64,000 nt of DNA, taken from assembly GCA_963674755.2 (NCBI GenBank), contig CAXXVS010000001.1:544001-608000 (forward strand), in the 5' to 3' direction. The notes beneath the pieces are model-generated. The model saw only the letters and a list, made by a program, of their open reading frames with translations. It did not search any database and was not told the origin of the DNA. Shown piece by piece: positions 1,638-31,108 of the stretch (the stretch's first letter is position 1; the number at the start of each line of letters is the position of its first letter). Source of the stretch: Desulfobacterales bacterium (GTDB lineage Bacteria > Desulfobacterota > Desulfobacteria > Desulfobacterales > UBA5852). Made by a program: the position numbers and the translations under genes.

Positions 1638-4040
1638 ATGACACAACACCGGTCGCCGGAGGATCTTACTGCCGAGAAGCTTCCTGAGCGTCTGCCCATT
1701 CTACCCCTGCATGAGACCGCCCTCTATCCCAAAATGGTCCTGCCCCTGGTGGTCATGCAGGCGGATTCCATCAAACTGGTGGACGAAGCCATGCAGAAGG
1801 ACCGCATCATCGGCATGCTGGTAGCCAAGGCCGATGCGCCGGCCGCAGGCGACCAGGCAGCCCAGGAGACGACTGCCGAAACCGCGGCGGAAGAATCCGC
1901 CTTCGACCCCCGGGAACATCTTTCCAGCATCGGCACCAGTGCCATGATCATGAAAATGGCCAAGACCCAGGACAATCAGACCCAGATGCTGGTCCAGGGC
2001 ATCAGCCGTTTCAGGATCAAGGATTTCGTACAGGAAAAGCCCTATCTCATTGCAACGGTGGAGCATCTCAAGGAGGAGAAGGCCGAAGGCAAGGAAATCG
2101 AAGCGCTGATGACCAACCTGGTCAATACCTTCGGTCGGGTCGTCGAGCTTTCCCCGGGCATGCCGGCAGAGATTGCGACCATGGCCAAGTCCATCCAGGA
2201 ACCGGGCACCTTGGCCAATATGGTGGCCTCCACCCTGAACGTGGATGCCCAGAGCAAACAGGCCGTCCTGGAGCTCGACGATGTCAAAAAACGCCTGCGG
2301 GCCGTCATGCGGATGGTGAACGAGCAGTTGGAGATCCTGGAACTGGGCAACAAGATCCAGTCCCAGGTCAAGGGCGACATGGAGAAAAGCCAGCGGGAGT
2401 ACTATCTGCGGCAGCAGCTCAAGGCCATCAAAGAAGAACTGGGCGAGACCGACGACAGCAATGTGGAACTGGAAGAATTCCGTACCAAGATCATGGAGGG
2501 CGACCTGCCGGAGGAGGCCCGCAAGGAGGCCGAGCGGGAGCTCGACCGCCTGGCCAAGATGCATCCCTCTTCGGCGGAATACACGGTGGCCACCACCTAT
2601 CTGGATTGGGTAACCTCCCTGCCCTGGCATCAGAGCACCGAAGACAATCTGGACATCAAGGCCGCCCGGGCGATTCTGGACGAAGACCATTTCGGGCTGG
2701 AAAAGGCCAAGCGGCGCATCGTCGAACACCTGGCGGTGCGCAAACTCAACCCCGACACCAAGGGCCCGATCCTGTGTTTCGTGGGGCCGCCCGGTACGGG
2801 CAAGACGTCCCTGGGGCGTTCGGTGGCGCGCGCCATGGGGCGCAAGTTCTGGCGGATCTCCCTGGGCGGGGTGCGCGACGAAGCCGAAATCCGGGGCCAT
2901 CGGCGTACCTATGTGGGGGCCATGCCCGGGCGCATCATCCAGGCCATCCGCCGTTGCGAGTCCAACAATCCCGTGTTCATGCTGGATGAAATCGACAAGC
3001 TGGGCAACGACTTCCGGGGTGATCCCTCCTCGGCCCTGCTGGAAGTCCTGGATCCCGAGCAGAACTTCAGTTTTTCCGATCATTATCTGGATGTGCCTTT
3101 CGATCTGTCGCATGTTATGTTTATTACGACGGCCAACGTCCTCGATACCATTCCTGCGCCGCTGCTCGACCGCATGGAAGTGCTGGAAATGGTGGGCTAT
3201 ACCCTCGAGGAAAAAGTCAAGATTGCCAACCGCTACCTGATTCCACGCCAGCGGGAGGCCCACGGCCTCAAGGCGCGCCAGATCAAGATCTCCACCGGCG
3301 CCGTGAAACGGATTATCGCGGGTTATACCCGGGAAGCCGGTCTGCGCAACCTGGAACGGGAGATCGCCTCCATCTGCCGCGGCGTGGCCGCCAAGGTGGC
3401 CCAGGGCGATGCGGAGGCCGTCTCCGTCGGGATGGACGAGGTCGCCGAATATCTGGGGCCGATCAAGATCACTTCGGAAGCCAAAGCGCGCACGGCCACC
3501 CCGGGCGTTGCCATAGGACTGGCCTGGACGCCCACCGGCGGCGAAGTTTTGTTCATCGAAGCCACCGCCATGAAGGGGCAAAAGGGGTTGACCCTTACCG
3601 GGCAGCTGGGGGACGTGATGAAGGAATCGGCCACCGCGGCCTTAAGCTTTATCCGCTCCCACGCCAAGGAGCTCAAGATCGACGAGGATTTCTTCAGCAG
3701 CCACGACATCCATATTCATGTGCCGGCCGGGGCGATCCCCAAAGACGGACCCTCAGCGGGGGTTACCATGCTGACGGCCCTGGTATCCCTGATGACGAAC
3801 CGGCGGATCAAAAAGGACCTGGCCATGACCGGTGAAATCACCTTGCGGGGCCAGGTGCTTCCTGTGGGCGGGATCAAAGAGAAGGTTCTGGGGGCCCACC
3901 GGGTGGGCATCAAGATTTTGATTCTGCCGGCGGCCAATGAAAAGGACTTGATCGACGTGCCGGAAAAGGTACGCATGGCCATAGAGTTTCACTTCGTCTC
4001 CAAGATGAAGGATGTGCTCCGTATTGCCCTCGGCACCTGA
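1638..4040 (+). CDS. lon: ATP-dependent Lon protease
   Basis: LON N-domain, Walker A GPPGTGKT, Walker B LDEID, catalytic PKDGPSAG and GGIKEK; RBS GGAGG. Confidence 0.98.
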   Translation: MTQHRSPEDLTAEKLPERLPILPLHETALYPKMVLPLVVMQADSIKLVDEAMQKDRIIGMLVAKADAPAAGDQAAQETTAETAAEESAFDPREHLSSIGTSAMIMKMAKTQDNQTQMLVQGISRFRIKDFVQEKPYLIATVEHLKEEKAEGKEIEALMTNLVNTFGRVVELSPGMPAEIATMAKSIQEPGTLANMVASTLNVDAQSKQAVLELDDVKKRLRAVMRMVNEQLEILELGNKIQSQVKGDMEKSQREYYLRQQLKAIKEELGETDDSNVELEEFRTKIMEGDLPEEARKEAERELDRLAKMHPSSAEYTVATTYLDWVTSLPWHQSTEDNLDIKAARAILDEDHFGLEKAKRRIVEHLAVRKLNPDTKGPILCFVGPPGTGKTSLGRSVARAMGRKFWRISLGGVRDEAEIRGHRRTYVGAMPGRIIQAIRRCESNNPVFMLDEIDKLGNDFRGDPSSALLEVLDPEQNFSFSDHYLDVPFDLSHVMFITTANVLDTIPAPLLDRMEVLEMVGYTLEEKVKIANRYLIPRQREAHGLKARQIKISTGAVKRIIAGYTREAGLRNLEREIASICRGVAAKVAQGDAEAVSVGMDEVAEYLGPIKITSEAKARTATPGVAIGLAWTPTGGEVLFIEATAMKGQKGLTLTGQLGDVMKESATAALSFIRSHAKELKIDEDFFSSHDIHIHVPAGAIPKDGPSAGVTMLTALVSLMTNRRIKKDLAMTGEITLRGQVLPVGGIKEKVLGAHRVGIKILILPAANEKDLIDVPEKVRMAIEFHFVSKMKDVLRIALGT

Positions 4041-20810: not shown

Positions 20811-20820
20811 CCCCAATTTA

Positions 20821-20844
20821 TGATACATATCTCATTATGTGTCA
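20821..20844. promoter_or_regulatory. Palindromic operator candidate
   Basis: TGATACATA-N6-TATGTGTCA, just downstream of the -10 box. Confidence 0.55.
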
Positions 20845-20903
20845 GCCCCGAGCGGATGATAGGGACCCGCATTGCCATCCCCGGGGGCGAAAGGCGGATC
20901 GCT

Positions 20904-21830
20904 ATGCGTGATTTACTTTCGACGAAAGAAGTGGCCCGGTTTCTGGGTGTCAATGAAAAGATGGTCTATACCCTGGTGGCTGAAAAAGGACTGCCGGCCA
21001 CCAAAATCACCGGCAAATGGCTTTTCCCCCAGAATTTGGTGGAGCAGTGGGTCGAAGCCAACACCATCAACTATCCGGAACCCCAGCGCCATTTGCCGCC
21101 TTATGAGGGGTTGCTGATTGTAGCCGGCAGCAACGATCCCCTTCTGGAGAAGACCCTTTCGCTGTTTAACCGGCGTTATCCCGAGCATATCGCCGTACTG
21201 GGCAATCTGGGGAGTCTCGGCGGATTGCGGGCCCTGCGTCGCAATTTGTGCCACCTGGCCACCAGTCATCTTATCCAGGACAATGAGGCGGACTATAATT
21301 TCGAATATGCCGACCGCGAACTCGAACGTCAGCCGGCGGTGGTCAATTTCTGCCGACGGGAGCAGGGGTTGCTCGTGGCCCGGGGGAATCCCAAAAGCAT
21401 AAGCACGGTGGCCGATTTGGCCCAACCGGGGCTTACCCTGGTCAACCGCCCCAATAGTACCGGAACCCGCCTGCTCCTGGACCGTGAATTGGCCAAGGCC
21501 GGCATCGAGGGTGAGGACATTGCCGGCTATCACCAGACGGTGATGCGCCATCTGGACGTGGGCCTGGAAATCCTGGCCGGGCGGGGCGATGTGGGGCCGG
21601 GCATCCGCGCTGTGGCCGGGATGCTGGGGCTTGATTTCGTGCCCCTGCGCTGGGAGCGCTATGATTTGCTGATCACCAAGGAGCGTTTTTTCGACCCGGG
21701 TGTTCAGCTTTTTCTGGGGTTGCTGCCGGATGAAGAATTCCGGCAGTTGGCGGACACGCTGGAGGGCTACGACGTCTCTGCCAGCGGAAAAATGGTCTAC
21801 CCCAACGGGGAACGGCCACAAACGGATTAG
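20904..21830 (+). CDS. HTH_17 (excisionase-like) + PBP molybdate/tungstate-binding transcriptional regulator (TaoR-like architecture)
   Basis: [11 protein letters not shown]...ITGKWLF HTH; GSNDP, GSLGGL, REQGL, VNR..GTR, ERYDL PBP_like motifs. Confidence 0.88.
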
Positions 21831-21843
21831 GAAGGAGACATCC

Positions 21844-22824
21844 ATGGATCGGAAGCGGTGGCATTTTTTAAGCATCATGCTTGTTGGATTGCTGCTGATG
21901 GGTGGGACGGCCGTTACGGCTGCGGCCAAAGACGCGGTTATCGTGTTTCACGCCGGTAGCCTGACGGTGCCCCTGGCTCAGATCGAAAAGGATTTCGAAG
22001 CGTTGCACCCGGATATCGATATCCAGCGCGAGGCCGGCGGCAGTACGAAAATGGCCCGCATGATTTCGGAATTGCACAAACCGGCCGATATTATGGCATC
22101 AGCCGACTACCAAGTTATCGAGAAAACCCTGAGGCCCCGGTATGCCGACTGGAATATCCGCTTTGCCACCAACCGCCTGGTGCTCTGCTATACCCCCCAG
22201 AGCCGTTACGCCGATGAACTGACCGCCGATAATTGGTATGAGATTCTGGCCCGCAAGGGCGTAGTCTGGGGGCATTCCGATCCGAACCTGGATCCCTGCG
22301 GGTACCGCAGCCTGATGGTCCTGCAGCTGGCCGAGCTGTTCTACAACCAGCCGGGGCTCTACGACCGTCTGCTGGCCAACCGGCCGGAGGCCAATGTGCG
22401 GCCCAAGTCGGTGGAGCTGGTGTCGCTGCTTAAAACCGGGCATATGGATTATGCTTGGGAATACCGTTCCGTGGCCGTCCAGCATGGGTTGAACTTCCTG
22501 GAACTTGATGACCACATCAATCTTGGCAATTATGCGTATGACGATTATTACCGCCAGGCCCAGGTCAAGGTTACCGGCAAAAAGCCCGGCAGCTGGATAA
22601 CCCGCACCGGCAAAAGCTGCACCTACGGTATCACCATGATCAAGGACGGCCCCAATCCAGACGGGGCGGCCCTTTTCATGGCCTATCTGCTGGATCCGGA
22701 AGGCGGCTTGAAAGTCCTGGACGCCATGGGGCAACCGCCCTTCATTCCCTGCCGGGTGGCTTCGGAAACTGAAAAGCAAGCCTTGCCTGATTCGCTGCAA
22801 CCGCTGGTTGCCATTGCGCCCTAA
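21844..22824 (+). CDS. wtpA: Tungstate/molybdate ABC transporter substrate-binding protein
   Basis: [31 protein letters not shown] WtpA-type motifs; signal peptide; RBS AAGGAG. Confidence 0.9.
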
Positions 22825-22906
22825 TGAATCCCGCTGATGACGCTCCTGCCGGTGGGCGCCGGATAGCGCATCCCGGCCGGGGCGGGCGGTCGATTTCGCT
22901 ACCACC

Positions 22907-23742
22907 ATGCCACCCATGAATGCGTCCTTGCATAGCAGCCCCCCATCGGCCGGCGGCCGTCTGGCGATCGATCCCTTTTGGGGTCTTGCCCTGGCCGCCA
23001 CCACCGTGATCACTGCGTTCATTCTGCTTCCGCTGGTGGAAATGGTGGTCCAGCCCTCCTGGCAGGACCTGCTCGATTCCTGGCGCGATCCCGATGTCGT
23101 GCGGGCCATCGGAATGAGCCTTTATACCGCCGGCGCGGCGGCCTTGATTTCCTTCGTCTTCGGCACCCCGTTTGCCTACCTTCTGGCCCGCAAATCCTTC
23201 CCGGCAAGCGCCTGGTGGAAAGCGTGGTGGACCTGCCCATTATGATCCCCCATCCGGTGGTGGGCATTGCCTTGCTGAGTCTGGCCGGTCGCCATCACTG
23301 GTTCGGACGCATCCTGGAAGCGCTCAACATCCAGATCATGGGCACCGTCACCGGGATCGTCAGCGTTCTGACCTTCGTCGGACTGCCCTTTTACATCAAT
23401 GCCGTCAAAACCGGATTCGAGTCGATTCCGCCGCGTCTGGAGACGGTTTCCCGCAGCCTGGGGGCCTCGTTTTCAGCAACCTTTATGCGGGTCACCTTTC
23501 CCCTGGCCTGGCGCAGCATGCTGGTGGGGCTGATCATGTGCATGGCGCGTGCGGTGAGTGAATTCGGGGCCGTCGTGATCGTGGCCTATCATCCCATGGT
23601 GGCTTCGGTGATGATCTATGAGCGGTTTACCGCATACGGACTGAAGTATTCCCAGCCGGTGGCGGTGGGATTGATTCTGGTCTGCCTGGTGTTTTTCCTG
23701 CTTCTGCGCTGGGTGTCGCCCCGGAAGGCGTCCATCCCATGA
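22907..23742 (+). pseudogene. wtpB: Tungstate ABC permease, split by a 1-nt frameshift near 23200
   Basis: Frame 1 ends ...FAYLLARKSF, frame 2 continues PGKRLVESVVDLPIMIPHPVVG...; adding one base at TTCCCGGCAAG joins them. Confidence 0.8.
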
Positions 23743-24800
23743 TACGGGTGGAGGACTTGACCGTCGCGCTGCCCGGCTTTGCCCTGACGGACATCCAGTT
23801 GCATGTGGCACCCGGCGAGGCCTTTGCCCTGCTCGGGCCCACGGGCGCCGGCAAGACCCTTTTGCTGGAAGCCATTATGGGGGTCGTACCGGTGCAACGG
23901 GGCCGGATCCTGGTCGCGGGCCGTGACGTGACCGGGTTGCCCCCCGAGCGGCGCCGCATCGGGATCGTCTACCAGGATCACGCCCTGTTTCCCCATCTGA
24001 ACGTGGCGGAAAACATCGTCTATGGGCAACGCTATTGTGCCGGCCCGCTTCCGGACCTGGACGCCCTGATCCAGCGTCTCGGCCTGGAGCGCCTTCTGGC
24101 ACGCCGCATCCATTCCCTGAGCGGCGGCGAAAAACAGCGCGTGGCCCTGGCGCGTTCCCTGGCCGTGGCGCCTTCGGTCCTGCTATTGGACGAGCCGCTG
24201 ACCGCGCTGGATCCGAATTTCCGCGAAGATCTTCGCGATCTGATCAAAACCCTGCATCAGGACACCGGCATTACGCTGCTGATGGTGACCCACGATTTCG
24301 CGGAGGCCCATTTCCTGGCCCAGCGCACGGCGATCATGCATAGCGGACGTATCGAACAAACCGGATCCCTGGAGGCGGTTTTTGCACATCCGGAAACCCC
24401 CTTCGTGGCGGGTTTCGTCGGCATGAAAAATCTGTTTTCGGCGGAAATTGACGGGGATGCGGTGAAAATCGGCAACCTTCGGCTGCGGTGCCGCAACCCG
24501 GGCGGCGGGTTTCGTTCGATTGCCGTACGGCCGGAAAATGTGGGTGTCAGCCGGCAACCCAAGGACGCCCCCGGGGTCAACCATTTGACCGGCCGCCTGC
24601 GCCGCGTTTTGAACCGCGGCTTTTATGCGGATATCCTGGTTGACGTGGACGGCGTGTCCTGGCATGCCATCGACAGCCGCCGTGACCTGGGCCGCTCGGC
24701 CGTGACCCACGGCGAGACGGTTTATCTAACGATCGCCCCCGAAGATATCCATTTGATTCGCGATGGTTGCGATGGGGGGACGCAAAAAGCGGGAAGATAG
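23739..24800 (+). CDS. wtpC: Tungstate/molybdate ABC transporter ATPase with TOBE domain
   Basis: GPTGAGKT, LSGGEKQR, LLLDEP, VTHD; C-terminal TOBE-like region. Confidence 0.88.
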   Translation: MIRVEDLTVALPGFALTDIQLHVAPGEAFALLGPTGAGKTLLLEAIMGVVPVQRGRILVAGRDVTGLPPERRRIGIVYQDHALFPHLNVAENIVYGQRYCAGPLPDLDALIQRLGLERLLARRIHSLSGGEKQRVALARSLAVAPSVLLLDEPLTALDPNFREDLRDLIKTLHQDTGITLLMVTHDFAEAHFLAQRTAIMHSGRIEQTGSLEAVFAHPETPFVAGFVGMKNLFSAEIDGDAVKIGNLRLRCRNPGGGFRSIAVRPENVGVSRQPKDAPGVNHLTGRLRRVLNRGFYADILVDVDGVSWHAIDSRRDLGRSAVTHGETVYLTIAPEDIHLIRDGCDGGTQKAGR

Positions 24801-24874: not shown

Positions 24875-25219
24875 CTAATTTCCGGTGGGATTCGTCGGAG
24901 TATTATCCAACTTGAGCTGGTCAGCCGGAATATTTTTGTGCTGATTGGCGATTTTGTGCTGGTTAGCCGGGATATTTTTGTGTTGGTTGGCCACCTTGTG
25001 CTGGTTGGCGTCAAGGATTTTATGCTGGTTGGATACGACATCGCCTGTTGTCGCCGGGCTGGTGATGGTGGCTTTTTCGCCGGCCATAACATCGCCCACA
25101 TTGACTCCGAGGGAAGCGCCCAGGGAAGCCACGACCGTTGCGATACCAATGGTCTTTTTTAGGGAACGGATGCCCGGTTTGCGATCGTTGTGTTGCTTAG
25201 CGGTCGATTTGGCCTTCAT
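24875..25219 (-). CDS. Small exported-looking protein with tandem NQHK repeats (candidate precursor peptide)
   Basis: RBS GGGAGGG, basic N-region, hydrophobic segment ending VMA, six (S/A)(N/D)Q(H/L)K units with synonymous codon variation. Confidence 0.85.
   Translation of the reverse strand: MKAKSTAKQHNDRKPGIRSLKKTIGIATVVASLGASLGVNVGDVMAGEKATITSPATTGDVVSNQHKILDANQHKVANQHKNIPANQHKIANQHKNIPADQLKLDNTPTNPTGN
24911..25033 (-). repeat. Coding tandem repeat: SNQHK, 4 x ANQHK, ADQLK
   Basis: Read directly; 18-24 nt units differing mainly at third codon positions. Confidence 0.9.
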
Positions 25220-25916
25220 TTTTCCCTCCCTTCATGGAATGGCCGGCCCAGTCTTCGATGGCCCGGATGTGGATTACAAGTTCATTTTCTATCGTTAGGG
25301 GCCGGGCGATTTGTTCTCTTTTGCAAAAGTCTGATACCGCCCGGTCGACATCCCGGAGGATATCGTAAGGTTCCGCCGCCGCACAAGAAGGCTTGGCCAA
25401 GGCATTGGCCATCGCCTGGTGGTTGGCCACATCTTTTTGCAATATATCGCATAACTTCCAAAAAAGCTGCAAGTATTTATCGGCCGCCGCCATAAACGGA
25501 TGGGCCCTCTGGGCGTCGAGATAATCGCAGACCGTGGCGTCCGTTCCATAAACGCCCCGGCAGGCCGGGTCCGGTTCGAATTCGGAAAAGGACTCCTGCA
25601 AGGTCGGTGTAACGTGTCGCCCAAGGGGGTAGAGACGGCAGACCAGGGGGCGGTCCTTATGGACCATGCACCCCCGGGAACCGAGAAATAAGCAGCGTCC
25701 CTCGGCGTCCCAGGTCAGGCAGGTTCCGGCTTCGGTCGTATAGCGCTTGATAAAATCAGACGTAGACAGCCCGCGGTTGCGGGCCAGACGGGTGATTTCA
25801 TAGGGATTGACCTGGATCTTTTTGTTGCGGCAGCAGGTCCGGCAGCGCCGGCATGCGAAGGAGAAAGGCGTTTCCCGATCGAGATTGACCCTGCGTTGGC
25901 GCATATCCATGCTCAT
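25197..25916 (-). CDS. YkgJ family CxxCxxCC cysteine-cluster protein
   Basis: FSFACRRCRTCC...CLFL...CMVHKDRPLVCRLYP, plus an ~110-aa C-terminal helical extension. Confidence 0.88.
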   Translation of the reverse strand: MSMDMRQRRVNLDRETPFSFACRRCRTCCRNKKIQVNPYEITRLARNRGLSTSDFIKRYTTEAGTCLTWDAEGRCLFLGSRGCMVHKDRPLVCRLYPLGRHVTPTLQESFSEFEPDPACRGVYGTDATVCDYLDAQRAHPFMAAADKYLQLFWKLCDILQKDVANHQAMANALAKPSCAAAEPYDILRDVDRAVSDFCKREQIARPLTIENELVIHIRAIEDWAGHSMKGGKNEGQIDR

Positions 25917-25990: not shown

Positions 25991-27157
25991 TTAGGGCCGA
26001 TAGCGGCGGGGCACCCGGGTGGTGTTAGTGAACAGTACCTCGTAATTGATGGTACCGAGCAGGTCCGCGACCTCATCGGCGCTGATTTCGGCTTTGCCCT
26101 GACGGCCGATGAGTACGACTTCATCCCCGGCCTGAGCGCTTGCTTGCGGGCCCAGGTCCAGCATGATCAAATCCATGCAAACCCGCCCTACCATGGGGAC
26201 CCGTCGTCCCCCCACCAGCATAACGCCCCGGTTGGATAGGCGGCGCGAGATGCCGTCGGCGTAACCGGCCGCCACGGTGCCGATCACGGTGGGCCGGGGG
26301 GCCTCCCAGGTCATCCCGTAGCTGACCTTGGTCCCTGCCGGCACCGTCTTGACCTGCAACAGGCGTGCTTTCAAGGTAAGGGCCGGGTGGAGGGCGATCC
26401 GGTTATGGTCCACATCCCGGGAAGGATAGAGCCCGTAGAGGGCGATGCCGGGCCGCACCGCATCCAGATGGGCCTGGGGCAGATCGATGAGGGCCGCGCT
26501 GTTGGCGGCGTGGCGCAGGCCGCAAGCGATGCCGGCCGCCTTCAGGGCCTGCAGAAAATCTTGGAACACCTGGAACTGGCGGTCGGCATAGGCTTTATCC
26601 TTTTCATCGGCGGCCGCAAAATGGGTGTAGATGCCCTCCAGGCGCAGCCCCGGCAGGCGGCTGATGGCGGTGGCCTCAGATACGGCCGACAGGGAAGCGT
26701 CCCTCCGCAGCGCATCCGGAAGCAGCCCCAGGCGGCCCATGCCCGAATCGAATTTGAGATGGATGGGGATGGCCTTGCCCCGGCGTTGGGCCACCGCCTC
26801 CAGCTGTCGGGCGGCTTCCAGCCCGCCCACACTCGGGATCAGGTCGTGGGCGATCAGGTCTTCGGCCGCGGCAGGGAGGGTGTGGCCAAAGACGAGAATG
26901 GGCGCTTTAATCCCTGCCCTGCGAAGGGTAATCCCCTCGTCCAGGCGGGCCACGGCCAGCATCGCCGCTCCGGCTTCCAGCACGGTGCGGGCGACTTCCA
27001 CAGCCCCGTGACCGTAAGCGTCGGCCTTGACCACGGCGATCATCCGGGCCAGGGCCCGGGTGATGCGCCGCAGTTCATGCACATTGTGCGCGATGGCCTT
27101 CAGATCGATCTCGGCCCAGATGGGCGGGCCATCCATTATCCTATCGCTTCCGGCCAT
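25991..27157 (-). CDS. alr: Alanine racemase
   Basis: AVVKADAYGHG PLP lysine, DSGMGRLG, VRPGIALYG, GYADG, GRVCMD, TINYE. Confidence 0.97.
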   Translation of the reverse strand: MAGSDRIMDGPPIWAEIDLKAIAHNVHELRRITRALARMIAVVKADAYGHGAVEVARTVLEAGAAMLAVARLDEGITLRRAGIKAPILVFGHTLPAAAEDLIAHDLIPSVGGLEAARQLEAVAQRRGKAIPIHLKFDSGMGRLGLLPDALRRDASLSAVSEATAISRLPGLRLEGIYTHFAAADEKDKAYADRQFQVFQDFLQALKAAGIACGLRHAANSAALIDLPQAHLDAVRPGIALYGLYPSRDVDHNRIALHPALTLKARLLQVKTVPAGTKVSYGMTWEAPRPTVIGTVAAGYADGISRRLSNRGVMLVGGRRVPMVGRVCMDLIMLDLGPQASAQAGDEVVLIGRQGKAEISADEVADLLGTINYEVLFTNTTRVPRRYRP

Positions 27158-27202
27158 GGGTGCTCTTCTGATCTGCGCTCATGGTTCAAGGGGTTCCGCC
27201 GA

Positions 27203-28453
27203 CTACAACATCTCCAGCACACAGGCCATGGAGACCCCGCCGCCCCCGCACAGGGTGGCCATGCCCAGAGTCTTGTTGCGTTGTTTGAGGGCATGCAGCA
27301 GGGTGACCATGATGCGGGCCCCCGTGGCCCCCACGGGGTGTCCCAGTCCGATGCCCGAGCCGTTGACGTTGGTGATCTCGCGATTCAGCCCCAGTTCGAT
27401 TTCGCAGCCGAGATACTGGGCGGCAAAGGCTTCGTTGACCTCGATCAATTCGAAGTCCTCCAAGCCGATCCCCGAGCGTTCCATCAGGTTCCGCACGGCC
27501 GGAACCGGGGAGAGGCCCATCACGGACGGGTGGCAGGCGCCCATCCCCACGGCCTTGATGCGCGCCAGCGGGGTGAGACCCAATTCCCGGGCCTTGTCGG
27601 CGGACATGATCACCATGGCGGCCGAGCCGTCGTTGAGTCCGCTGGAGTTGCCGGCGGTGACCTTGCCGATTTCGGGAACGAAGGCCGGCGGCAGTTTGCT
27701 GAGGTCCGCCATGGTCATGCCCGGCCGGTAATGCTCGTCGCGGTCGAACACCAACGGGTCTTTTTTGCGGCGGGGCACCTCAATGGCAACGATCTCCTCT
27801 TCAAAATCCCCTTCCCGGGTGGCCCGTTCGGCGTTGTTGTGGCTGCGCAGGGCGACTTCATCCATGGCTTCCCGGCTGATGCCGTAGTGCTGGGCGATGA
27901 ATTCCGCCGTATGGCCCATAATGTAGGGCTTGCCCTTGAAATAACTCAAAGGCGGTTTTTCCGCATCCACCGGGCCGTCTTCAGGATGGGGGATCACATG
28001 GGACCCGCAGTGCAGGGCCCGTATCATGCGATCCACGAAGACCTGGTCCTGCAGCCGGCAGCCCCAGCGGGCTTTTTCCACGGTATAGGGGGCGCCCGAC
28101 ATATGTTCCACCCCGCCGGCCAGCACGATATCCACCAGTCCGGCCTGAATCATGGCCATGCCTGAGAGGGTGGCTTCCATGCCGGAAATGCAGACCCGGT
28201 TGATGGTGACGGCCGGCACGCTGTCCGGGATGCCCGCCAGCAGCGCGGCAATGCGGGTTACATTCAGGGTATCGGTGGGCTCGAGACAGCAGCCGTAGCG
28301 AACGTCACCGATCAGGGCAGGATCGATCCCGGCTCGGCGAATCGCTTCTTTCATGGTGGTGGCCGCGATGGTGGCCCCGTTGACATCCCTCAGGGTGCCC
28401 CCGAAGGTGCCGATGGCCGTACGGCAGGCCGATACGATGACAACATCTTTCAT
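27203..28453 (-). CDS. Acetyl-CoA C-acetyltransferase (thiolase)
   Basis: NRVCISG, NEAFA, GHPVGATG, LCGGGG; RBS AAGGAG. Confidence 0.95.
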   Translation of the reverse strand: MKDVVIVSACRTAIGTFGGTLRDVNGATIAATTMKEAIRRAGIDPALIGDVRYGCCLEPTDTLNVTRIAALLAGIPDSVPAVTINRVCISGMEATLSGMAMIQAGLVDIVLAGGVEHMSGAPYTVEKARWGCRLQDQVFVDRMIRALHCGSHVIPHPEDGPVDAEKPPLSYFKGKPYIMGHTAEFIAQHYGISREAMDEVALRSHNNAERATREGDFEEEIVAIEVPRRKKDPLVFDRDEHYRPGMTMADLSKLPPAFVPEIGKVTAGNSSGLNDGSAAMVIMSADKARELGLTPLARIKAVGMGACHPSVMGLSPVPAVRNLMERSGIGLEDFELIEVNEAFAAQYLGCEIELGLNREITNVNGSGIGLGHPVGATGARIMVTLLHALKQRNKTLGMATLCGGGGVSMACVLEML

Positions 28454-28546
28454 CAAAAACTCCTTTCAAATGGTCCGTCATTTCGGGGCCGGCGCTTTAA
28501 GGCGGGGCCGGTCCGGCATCATGGTCGCTTTATGCGGGGGCGTCCG

Positions 28547-30397
28547 TCAGCCCCCAAAGGAGGATTCGGCCGCGTCCAGAATGGCAGCGGCATCGCCGTC
28601 TAAAATGGCGTTGATCTTGCCTTCCGTCACCGGCAGCTGGCTGCGGATAAAATAGGTGGCGGCCCTGATCTGGCCGTCGTAGAAGGCGGCTTCCTTGTTA
28701 GCGGCAATGCGGCCGGCCGGATCTTCGGTGTCACCCAGCAGTTCCGCCAGGCGGGGCTGGGCCACGGCGGCCCGCCAGAGCAGCATCCAGGCCATGATGA
28801 TATCGCCGGTGACATCCAGGAAGGGCTGCGCCTGGGTGAAGGCGATTTTAACCGCCGGGCTCATGGCCTTCTTGCCCATGAAAATGGCGGTCTCGCCATA
28901 GCGGTTGAGAAGCTGCTCCAGACGGCCGCAAAGGCCCTGCAGGGCGGGCATCGTTTCCGCCGTCTGGATGGTGCGGCGGATCTCCTGCAGAAATTGCATA
29001 AACACTTCACCTCTTTTAAGGCCCAGTTTACGGCCCAGCAGATCCATGGCCTGGATGCCGTTGGTGCCCTCATAGATGGTGGCGATCTTGCAGTCCCGCA
29101 TGAGTTGTTCCACCGGATATTCACGGGTATAGCCGTAACCGCCGAAGACGTTCATGGCCATGTCGCAGACCTCCATGCCGCGATCGGAGCAGTAGGCTTT
29201 CACCACCGGTGTCAGAAAGTCGATGAGCCCTTTGTACTTTTCCTTTTCATCGCCGTCGCGCGCGGTGGCTTCCAGGTCGAAGAGATAGGCCACATAAAAG
29301 GTGAAGCTGCGCATGCCGTCCACCAGGGCTTTCATGCGCATCAGTTGGCGGCGGATGTCGGGATGGCGGATGATGGGAACACCGCCTGCCTCGGGGGTGC
29401 GGGCTTCGGACAAATCGCGTCCCTGGATGCGCTGCTTGGCATATTCCGCGGCATGCAGGTAGGCCGAAGAGCCGTGCAGGTAGCCCTGCTGGCCGACACC
29501 AAGGCGGGCTTCATTCATCATGTGGAACATGATCGCCATGCCCCGGTTGGCCTCCCCCAGGAGCAGGCCCCGGCAGGTTCCGCGCGACCCCAGGGCCATA
29601 CTGCAAGTAGGGCTGCCGTGGATGCCCATTTTTTCTTCGATGCCGGTGCACATGATGTCGTTGGGTTCTCCCAGGGATCCGTCTTCGTTGACCCAGTGCT
29701 TGGGCACCAGGAAGATGGAGATGCCCTTGGTGCCGGCCGGAGCCCCTTCGATGCGTGCCAGGACCGGATGGATGATGTTCGCGGTGACATCGTGGTCCCC
29801 GCAGGTGATGAAGATCTTGTTGCCGGTAATGCTGTAGGTGCCGTCCGGATTGGGCCGGGCCGTGGTGGTGAGGGCGCCCACATCGGAGCCGGCCTCCGGT
29901 TCGGTGAGCAGCATGGTGCCGGCCCATTCGCCGGAGTAGACTTTTTTCAGAAACAGCTTTTTCTGCGCTTCGGTGCCGAAGAGTTCAATCATCTTGCCGG
30001 TGCCGTGGGCCAGAATGCCGAAGGCCGCAAAGGCGAAATTGGCGCCCACGATATACTCCCGAGCGGCCTGGGCCACGACCTGAGGCAGCCCCTGGCCGCC
30101 CATAGCGGGATCTTCTTCCATGGCGATCCATTCGCCGTCGACATAGTATTTATAGGGCCGATAGAAGCAGGCCGGCACCTTGACCTGGCCGTTTTCAAAA
30201 GCGACGCCGGTGCGGTCGCCTTCCACATAGGTGGGGAGGATTTCGTTGATGCCCAGACGGCGGGCTTCCGTTATCACCATATCGGTCAATTTACGGTTGA
30301 GGTCATGGTAGCGCTCGGTTTCGAAAAGGGCTTCGATTCCCAGTTGCTCGAATAAGACAAAATCGATATCCCGACGGTCGGCAATGCGTTGGGCCAT
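28547..30397 (-). CDS. Acyl-CoA dehydrogenase (long, ~600-aa type)
   Basis: LTEPEAGSDVG, GNKIFIT, EEKMGIHGS, MMNEARL, FGGYGY, IYEGTNGIQAMDL; start at MAQRIADRRD. Confidence 0.94.
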   Translation of the reverse strand: MAQRIADRRDIDFVLFEQLGIEALFETERYHDLNRKLTDMVITEARRLGINEILPTYVEGDRTGVAFENGQVKVPACFYRPYKYYVDGEWIAMEEDPAMGGQGLPQVVAQAAREYIVGANFAFAAFGILAHGTGKMIELFGTEAQKKLFLKKVYSGEWAGTMLLTEPEAGSDVGALTTTARPNPDGTYSITGNKIFITCGDHDVTANIIHPVLARIEGAPAGTKGISIFLVPKHWVNEDGSLGEPNDIMCTGIEEKMGIHGSPTCSMALGSRGTCRGLLLGEANRGMAIMFHMMNEARLGVGQQGYLHGSSAYLHAAEYAKQRIQGRDLSEARTPEAGGVPIIRHPDIRRQLMRMKALVDGMRSFTFYVAYLFDLEATARDGDEKEKYKGLIDFLTPVVKAYCSDRGMEVCDMAMNVFGGYGYTREYPVEQLMRDCKIATIYEGTNGIQAMDLLGRKLGLKRGEVFMQFLQEIRRTIQTAETMPALQGLCGRLEQLLNRYGETAIFMGKKAMSPAVKIAFTQAQPFLDVTGDIIMAWMLLWRAAVAQPRLAELLGDTEDPAGRIAANKEAAFYDGQIRAATYFIRSQLPVTEGKINAILDGDAAAILDAAESSFGG

Positions 30398-31108
30398 AAC
30401 GGGGCTCCTTGTTTCACGGGCGGCGGCACGCGTCACCGCTGTGGAATGGGGTTGGCGCTGCCGTGGCGGCAGCCGGCTGGGTTCCTGTATTATGACATTG
30501 GGCGGCCGACGGCAAGGCCCGGGTCGCCGGATAATCGTCAGCGCGGCCCAAGCGCCGGTGGCCGGTCGGTGTGTGCCCGCTGGCACGGCGTACGCGGTCG
30601 GCGCTGGAAGCGTGTGATAAAAGATGCGGGGGGCAGGTGTAAAGCGACGCCGGCGTCGGTCGGCCGGGGTACCCCGCTCGGTTGGATGCCGCTGCCGCGG
30701 AGCCGGTCCGGCAATCTGCCTGCCGTTCAAACGGATTCGGCAGGCGCTCTCGCGAAGGCGTTATTTTCGTCCTGGTGAAAGCCTTGTGGAAGTAGGATCT
30801 CCATCGGAAAAGATGCACGCTCTTCCGGGAGACGCCTGCCGAAACTCGGGGGGCAACGTACGCTGATGGCGCAAGGGTCCCGCTCTCACGATATGGGAGG
30901 ACAAAGGGCAACAGGGCGATTTTGTGCTTTCCGGTGCGTGGCGGTGCGGTCTCGGGCAGCATTCGGGCGATTGAAAGATACCATATGCAAAACAGGTCCT
31001 GCTTGTCAAAGCAAAAACGGGCGATGTTCGTACCCGCACTTTGAATTCGGTTTCAAACGAAAAAGATCGATTCGCAAAGACAGCGGCCGGCATGTCGGGA
31101 CCGGCCGG

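Follow-up and report, generated by a model that had tools for sequence, protein, structure and literature searches.

To our knowledge, proteins of the CxxCxxCC family (Pfam PF03692, YkgJ or UPF0153) are very widespread and almost without assigned functions. Among peptides made by the ribosome and modified after translation (RiPPs), multi-core precursors are built from one leader and, behind it, a short core motif repeated several times. In a 64,000-nucleotide stretch of a Desulfobacterales genome (contig CAXXVS010000001.1; "the window" below means this whole stretch), a gene for a CxxCxxCC protein of 239 amino acids (aa) overlaps one for a 114-aa peptide with a signal-peptide-like leader and a row of short repeats. 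These two genes form a conserved, self-contained pair, which we analyse here as a candidate modifying enzyme and its precursor.

Three described systems come closest. The Salmonella enzyme FliB carries a [4Fe-4S] cluster on its CX4CX3CC motif, has eight conserved cysteines and, with S-adenosylmethionine (SAM) and a reductant, methylates many lysines of flagellin before export (PMC8598068), at sites that follow no consensus (PMC7181671). The phage protein DpdM has been described as homologous to YkgJ; its motif is CxxxCxxCC, it N-methylates dPreQ1 at the aminomethyl group, and two metal sites are predicted in it, one formed by three cysteines of the motif and a distant one, the other by the fourth motif cysteine and three later ones (10.1101/2023.04.13.536721 = PMC10516641). 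Bufferins are MNIO-modified RiPPs, the precursors of which carry Sec signal peptides (PMC11626156).

The pair lies on the minus strand of the window, where the following features were recognised:

25197..25916, minus strand: gene for the CxxCxxCC (YkgJ-type) cysteine-cluster enzyme, 239 aa (open reading frame and translation, PF03692 match)
24875..25219, minus strand: gene for the precursor peptide, 114 aa, with leader and six QxK repeats (open reading frame, family search)
25224..25230, minus strand: Shine-Dalgarno sequence GGGAGGG of the peptide gene, within the end of the enzyme gene (read from the sequence)
25082..25219, minus strand: peptide codons 1-46, with basic n-region, hydrophobic core and V-M-A site (heuristic signal-peptide features, conservation, co-fold)
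25082-25165, minus strand: peptide residues 19-46, the best-conserved stretch of the peptide family (majority-residue frequency)
24911..25033, minus strand: peptide codons 63-103, with SNQHK, ANQHK four times and ADQLK; proposed multi-core region (open reading frame, family motif, co-fold)

The two open reading frames (ORFs) share 23 nt (25197-25219, minus strand) and the sequence GGGAGGG is located 4 nt ahead of the peptide ATG, in agreement with the initial annotation of this DNA, which had described a 23-nt overlap and a strong ribosome-binding site for the second gene. The translation likewise agrees with the 114-aa product annotated there, with a basic N-region preceding a hydrophobic segment (IGIATVVASLGASLGVNVGDVMA) and with NQHK repeats, five units reading NQHK and one DQLK; the full layout is MKAKSTAKQHNDRKPGIRSLKK, TIGIATVVASLGASLGVNVGDVMA, a 16-residue linker, and then SNQHK, four ANQHK and one ADQLK. 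In the 6.7-Mb genome, no other six-frame ORF of 40 aa or longer holds more than three N[QE]xK units (the window peptide has five, the runner-up, an ORF of 1229 aa, three), and because conserved relatives exist as well, the repeats cannot be attributed to chance. No second copy of the peptide was found in the window's own genome.

Coupling of the two genes had been claimed in the initial annotation, with a lack of co-occurrence named among the observations that would refute it, and co-occurrence proved to be strong. Among 61 related genomes, the enzyme was found at E<1e-50 only in the window's own genome (G000) and in two relatives (G001, 70% identity, E 4e-114; G035, 44%, E 4e-58), all remaining matches being at paralogue level (8e-16 or weaker); peptide matches better than 1e-5 were confined to the same three genomes (3e-47 and 4e-7 in the relatives), and in all three the genes adjoin. 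The surroundings of the pair in G035 differ from those in the window, with TetR-like ORFs instead of an alanine racemase gene (alr) and an ABC transporter. Enzyme-anchored scanning of metagenomes, limited to the best 80 of 357 confirmed loci (38-78% identity, nearly full length, several of them near-duplicates from related samples), returned a peptide-profile match (E<=0.001) directly downstream on the same strand in 68 loci and, by eye, a divergent ORF with leader and QxK units in four more (L111, L122, L127, L139); another four end within 73 nt of the enzyme gene, so that the downstream region is not visible.

Anchoring the scan on the peptide instead, with a narrow peptide alignment as query and one genome per species, gave eight loci from metagenome-assembled genomes (MAGs) titled Desulforapulum, Desulfatitalea, Desulfobacterales, Deltaproteobacteria, Geobacter and Geobacteraceae, of which six have an intact enzyme gene directly upstream, one a frameshifted gene (L055) and one an orphan precursor (L054). 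The L055 enzyme gene (3291-4014) is split near 3517-3524, ahead of a normal-looking precursor, and represents either a pseudogene or an assembly error. L054, from a Geobacter sp. MAG, has no enzyme gene within 4 kb, and the only enzyme orthologue of that genome, 50% identical to the L056 enzyme, lies on another contig beside a peptide of the long type described below, so that one enzyme may serve two precursors. When the phylum was sampled evenly with 401 genomes, three of them (G000, G096 and G142) gave the peptide with strong E-values, each time adjoining the enzyme; a fourth match (9.6e-4) falls within a frame of 537 aa and is probably spurious. The module is therefore rare, being present in less than 1% of the sampled genomes. 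Pairing persists down to approximately 38-40% enzyme identity, in changing contexts and in Desulfobacterales, Desulfatitalea, Desulforapulum and Geobacteraceae. The identities of enzymes and peptides co-vary (Mantel r 0.877 for 47 distinct pairs, a value reached in 0 of 999 permutations), which shows joint inheritance and nothing beyond it.

The window peptide had no match in Pfam or NCBIfam, and 57 family members compared with curated families gave scattered single low-complexity matches, none of them consistent; an ESM Atlas search with the peptide had a top score of 0.82 at low recognition and was uninformative. A genuine, uncatalogued family nonetheless exists around the peptide: searching 5.8 billion proteins by word index returned six at E<=0.01, including the query, and a profile search of 1.84 billion representative proteins returned 79 at E<=0.001, 30 of which were at E<=1e-10. 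Together with copies recovered from the loci, in which peptide start codons were set by a rule of our own, the family set amounts to 126 distinct members. A basic start and the leader consensus SLKKxLAxATxAASLGxSLGVxVxDxLA are common to all of them, and the repeat unit across the family is a tandem [S/A]-x-Q-x-K-hydrophobic, in line with the leader and repeated core that the initial annotation described for the window peptide. The number of QxK units per peptide has a median of 5 and ranges from 0 to 15 (zero in five members), and their spacing is mostly 6-8 residues. Two positions ahead of Q, Ser is found in 57% and Ala in 25% of repeats, and the residue following K is L, I, F or V in 55%; x is I in 20%, G in 15%, L in 15% and H in 11%, and Asn stands directly ahead of Q in 35%. 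In the mature region, 685 of 1347 lysines lie in QxK and a further 126 in ExK, and 685 of 1217 glutamines have Lys at +2. Cysteine content is 0.1% family-wide.

These frequencies bear on which residues might be modified. Lys, His, Gln or Asn had been put forward as targets; Lys especially, and Gln, are conserved, while the low family-wide frequencies of His and Asn given above make these two residues features of the window's lineage rather than of the family. The suggestion of a metal-binding product fails for the family on the same figure for His, and histidine-based metal binding was rejected as a family trait.

Conservation is concentrated in the leader, where the mean frequency of the majority residue is 0.76 for residues 19-46 as compared with 0.34-0.50 for the n-region, linker, repeats and tail, which is unusually high for a signal peptide. 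Judged by our own heuristic, the N-terminus looks like a signal for Sec and signal peptidase I, with a median n-region charge of +4, an h-region hydropathy of 1.89, a small-x-Ala site at approximately residue 45 in 120 of 123 whole members, and no lipobox cysteine.

A second type of peptide, of approximately 175-220 aa, was seen at L058 (G061 C15), L059 (G062 C19) and L065-L087. It has the same leader, followed by spaced, heptad-like A-N-Q/E-x-K-L units of coiled-coil-like appearance, and is paired with an enzyme subclade approximately 50% identical to the enzymes of the short type; one Geobacteraceae MAG holds both pairs.

Flanking genes change from locus to locus. Of 79 flanking ORFs, 59 were scanned (the other 20 belong to near-identical sister loci or are short ORFs of approximately 100-195 aa), and no conserved third gene was found among the 59, whether for a protease, an exporter, a RiPP recognition element (RRE) protein, a radical-SAM protein, a methyl-donor enzyme or a classical methyltransferase; recurring families were seen in close loci only (Glycos_transf_2 four times, SBF three times, Rrf2 twice). 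The initial annotation had already remarked that no protease or transporter is adjacent, and the Sec-type signal peptide on the precursor would account for this: a self-contained module needing no dedicated protease or exporter fits the general Sec pathway and signal peptidase. Individual loci have conspicuous neighbours, none of them conserved, including a YcaO gene beginning 5 nt past the precursor (L076:1671-2669), a CsgG-like gene (outer-membrane channel lipoprotein) that follows a precursor of the long type at a distance of 101 nt (L084:2007-2732), and type VI Hcp and VgrG genes flanking the pair (L129), which an upstream ORF of L111 resembles by eye only.

The enzyme matches PF03692 over residues 21-99 with 47.4 bits (cut-off 23), and an ESM Atlas search with it returned only YkgJ clusters. 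Its motif has the spacing CX2CX2CC, and seven cysteines (C22, C25, C28, C29, C75, C83 and C93) do not vary among the 76 relatives aligned, and neither does the block R89-PLVCRLYP-97. In the AlphaFold2 model (predicted local distance difference test, pLDDT, 87.9; predicted template modelling score, pTM, 0.83), a mixed alpha/beta cysteine domain of approximately residues 1-135 contains all seven invariant cysteines and is followed by a C-terminal helical domain with helices at 139-170, 183-201 and 209-229; the N-domain modelled alone reached a pLDDT of 90.5. A sequence search found no solved relative of the enzyme, Foldseek gave no match among solved structures at E<=0.001, and the top VIA-align hit of the whole model (Z 5.0) covers the helical part only, the N-domain by itself having one chain of 48,161 at Z>=2 (Z 2.1). 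The structure searches thus detect no neighbour, which is not proof of a new fold. The enzyme has no match to Radical_SAM PF04055, its motif being CX2CX2CC and not CX3CX2C, and no DUF692 (MNIO) match was found among the enzyme, the peptide or the 59 flanking ORFs; membership of either of these enzyme families was ruled out on these grounds. Nor does Pfam list DUF3109 for the enzyme at E<=0.01, PF03692 being the only family given.

PF03692 is represented by 12 genes in the window's genome (among them C1:115296-117524, C3:322416, C3:1479789 and C2:2144597), and the family was found in 10 of 14 control genomes. Two of the 12 are divergent genes 1.7 kb apart on C1, and tandem or neighbouring paralogue pairs occur in several related genomes too. 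In a quick ORF listing, which located the enzyme ORF at six of the 12 places, no leader-repeat peptide was seen beside the paralogues. Another relative of the enzyme (L140, G211 C19:50792-51457; E 3e-73) has no downstream peptide and carries a 50-residue C-terminal extension, the end of which (…TVSVLGHSIGAA…) was considered as a leader-like tail and dismissed as not significant (-0.8 bits).

The initial annotation had asked for a co-fold of enzyme and peptide, and this was run with a 76-row alignment for the enzyme, 56 rows for the peptide and a 4Fe-4S cluster riding along. Each of three runs scored 0.84, against 0.47, 0.01 and 0.00 for three controls, with the control in which the enzyme was replaced among the two lowest. 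The pass mark had been attained in calibration by 116 solved complexes out of 157 and 2 mismatched pairs out of 215, figures that apply only roughly here because alignments of our own and a small molecule went into the prediction. The runs agree in at least 73% of contacts, with a partner pLDDT of at least 51. In the predicted complex, the leader rests with residues 22-39 on the enzyme helices 145-163, 182-188 and 220-224, and these contacts have the lowest expected errors (0.5-0.7 Å for residues 26-37). Residues 60-71 (DVVSNQHKILDA, the first repeat) run along enzyme residues 98-105, against 28, 31-38, 62-66 and 91-96, so that C28 and C93, which belong to the cysteine sites, are among the contacts; within the repeat, the lowest errors are those of S63, N64 and Q65 with the near-invariant R100, H101 and V102. 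The prediction supports an arrangement in which the enzyme would bind the peptide through its C-terminal helices and present a repeat to the cysteine sites.

How, then, does the pair compare with the described systems? Like FliB, the enzyme has an N-terminal motif of the CxxCxxCC kind, and FliB is its nearest characterised relative over the cysteine domain, consistent with the FliB-related cysteine pattern noted in the initial annotation. FliB is cytoplasmic, modifies numerous lysines in a protein whose export comes later and is encoded beside its substrate; gene adjacency is observed here as well, and the other likenesses are proposed. The two differ in size and spacing (approximately 373 positions and CX4CX3CC in FliB; 239 aa and CX2CX2CC here) and in substrate, which for FliB is flagellin leaving through the flagellar type III system and here would be a short peptide with a Sec leader and strict QxK units. 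The identification of the enzyme as FliB itself was rejected, with 14.3 bits (E 0.022, cysteine domain only) against the cut-off of 85 of the equivalog NF038110, a different cysteine spacing, and neighbours (alanine racemase and an ABC ATPase) that include no flagellar genes. As with the enzyme, no counterpart of the DpdM fold has been solved, and the enzyme could share with DpdM two cysteine metal sites and the methylation of a primary amine; the last motif cysteine of DpdM and three later ones approximately 10 apart could be matched by C29, C75, C83 and C93. DpdM, however, acts on DNA and has the spacing CxxxCxxCC, and a tblastn search for a DpdM link in 50,697 phage records gave one weak, unannotated match (E 0.04).

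In bufferins, modification in the cytoplasm precedes general export and leader removal to give a periplasmic product, and a similar route is proposed for the present peptides. The bufferin maturase belongs to the DUF692/MNIO iron enzymes, works with a DUF2063 partner and targets cysteines, whereas the present system has only one enzyme, from another family, and a core without cysteine. Compared with multi-core RiPPs generally, the leader and repeated core are alike, but no RRE, protease or transporter gene is present here, and the repeats are probably kept in one chain and not cut apart. Of the features by which RiPPs are recognised, a gene-encoded leader and core and a co-encoded enzyme were found, and recognition of the one by the other is predicted by the co-fold only. 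No literature linking a YkgJ, CxxCxxCC, PF03692, UPF0153 or DUF3109 protein to a peptide precursor was found in a search whose coverage mostly excludes subscription journals. What the pair would add is leader-guided peptide modification by a new maturase family acting on a new precursor family.

We propose that the pair is a cassette of two genes by which a peptide is modified after translation, following a RiPP-like logic. The C-terminal helical domain of the cytoplasmic enzyme would hold the conserved hydrophobic signal peptide, which would double as leader, the [S/A]-x-Q-x-K-hydrophobic repeats would be threaded successively past two cysteine-bound metal sites, the epsilon-amine of each repeat lysine would be N-methylated, and the modified peptide would be handed to the general Sec pathway, its leader being cut by signal peptidase I. 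We regard this sequence of leader-guided, iterative lysine N-methylation in the cytoplasm followed by Sec export and leader cleavage as plausible, though somewhat short of probable. Lysine N-methylation is favoured among the possible reactions because FliB and DpdM both N-methylate primary amines and because Lys is the residue kept in each unit, even where Gln is replaced by Glu. If methylated flagellin is taken as a guide, the product might be a more hydrophobic or adhesive cationic peptide of the envelope or matrix, which is speculation.

Several observations weigh against this proposal. Structure predictors readily dock hydrophobic helices, and one control partner reached 0.47 in the co-fold. 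We know of no SAM-binding motif for this fold, so that methyl transfer is argued by analogy alone; FliB similarity is limited to the cysteine domain, the cysteine spacing of the enzyme is unlike that of FliB, and DpdM is not detectable by sequence. In the metagenome scan, four of the 80 loci (L097, L106, L113, L136) have room downstream of the enzyme gene and yet no peptide. In the 401-genome sample, enzyme-like matches at E<=1e-35 occur in 11 genomes, eight of which have no peptide match, and no candidate peptide was seen near the enzyme-like genes in the seven of these eight that were inspected; the enzyme clade is thus wider than the coupled subfamily. Finally, the signal peptide of bufferins is dispensable for modification (PMC11626156), whereas in the present pair it is the predicted docking element.

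The same architecture, a leader-guided maturase and an exported multi-core peptide, could serve another chemistry on Gln or Lys, such as methylation or deamidation of Gln, a Gln-Lys or other cross-link within Q-x-K, hydroxylation, or the transfer of some non-methyl group, and this we consider possible, if on the doubtful side. Gln is nearly as conserved as Lys, judging by the mature-region count of Gln with Lys at +2, the lowest-error repeat contacts in the predicted complex are those of Q65 and its two preceding residues, the fold has no solved relative that would constrain the reaction, and the mechanism of FliB is itself unsettled, a radical route having been proposed (PMC8598068). The 126 ExK units, in which Glu stands for Gln and Lys is retained, are however easier to reconcile with Lys as the target, and both characterised members of the superfamily, FliB and DpdM, methylate primary amines. 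A different division of labour, in which the enzyme-like protein is a non-catalytic cytoplasmic holdase or export gate, possibly sensing redox state or oxygen through its cluster and timing secretion of the peptide, appears unlikely. It would suit the strength of the predicted contacts with the signal-peptide core and the fact that the leader is the most conserved region of the peptide, but it leaves unexplained both the conservation of QxK amid repeats that otherwise drift freely and the predicted docking of the first repeat at the cysteine sites, and the seven invariant cysteines, together with the precedents of FliB and DpdM, favour catalysis.

If the small protein were instead an uncleaved membrane anchor or regulatory partner, the substrate of the enzyme would have to be sought elsewhere. 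FliB acts near the membrane (PMC8598068), and the hydrophobic segment could span one; yet a cleavage-type small-x-Ala site follows the hydrophobic core in 120 of 123 members, a membrane-embedded helix is incompatible with the predicted place of the leader in the groove of a soluble enzyme, and no third conserved gene is present to provide another substrate, which makes this explanation quite improbable. That the two genes are neighbours without any functional link is hardly credible, since the co-occurrence counts contradict it, adjacency being kept to approximately 38-40% enzyme identity across several lineages while the surrounding genes change.

In the window itself, the pair has neighbours on both sides. 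Upstream, on the same strand, the alr gene lies 74 nt ahead of the enzyme gene, in a region (25991-30730, minus strand) which also holds a thiolase and a large acyl-CoA dehydrogenase-like ORF. G001 likewise has alr ahead of the pair, which is not the case in G035 or in most metagenome loci; in the window, co-transcription of alr, enzyme and peptide is possible, with alr outside the module. Convergent to the peptide gene is an ABC importer operon (20820-24800, plus strand) comprising a putative binding protein (21700-22824), a permease (22978-23742) and an ATPase (23739-24800), the last being the only member of the operon checked, with TOBE_2 found by Pfam, and a 336-aa ORF whose N-terminal start resembles a helix-turn-helix (20820-21830) stands ahead of the operon. 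The gene order ATPase, peptide, enzyme, alr is retained in G001 and L060. A scan of the locus returned no promoter-like sites, and the terminator-like sites found lie inside genes or on the opposite strand.

With an enzyme of approximately 230 aa, a three-residue unit that recurs 5-15 times and a mutable leader, the pair is a minimal, genetically defined candidate for an enzyme and substrate of PF03692, and because the pair is so small, its unit strict and repeated and its leader open to mutation, the chemistry of that family becomes directly testable by co-expression and mass spectrometry. The widest form of the proposal would be a new RiPP class in which a CxxCxxCC protein, its fold without a solved structure, is the sole maturase, the hydrophobic core of the Sec signal doubles as leader, lysines of QxK units are N-methylated iteratively by a non-canonical methyl transfer that depends on a metal cluster, anaerobic bacteria of sediments (Desulfobacterales, Geobacteraceae and others) export a poly-methyl-lysine product, and orphan PF03692 paralogues, which like the enzyme are among the 12 family genes of this genome, are N-methylases of proteins or peptides with dedicated substrates of their own; taken as a whole, this is conceivable but rather doubtful. 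If the modification proposed here is true, RiPP biology would gain one family of maturases and one of precursors, and the pair would be the second case, after the bufferins and mechanistically different from them, of a Sec signal peptide taking part in RiPP logic, and would mean a new exported product of sulfate- and metal-reducing sediment bacteria.

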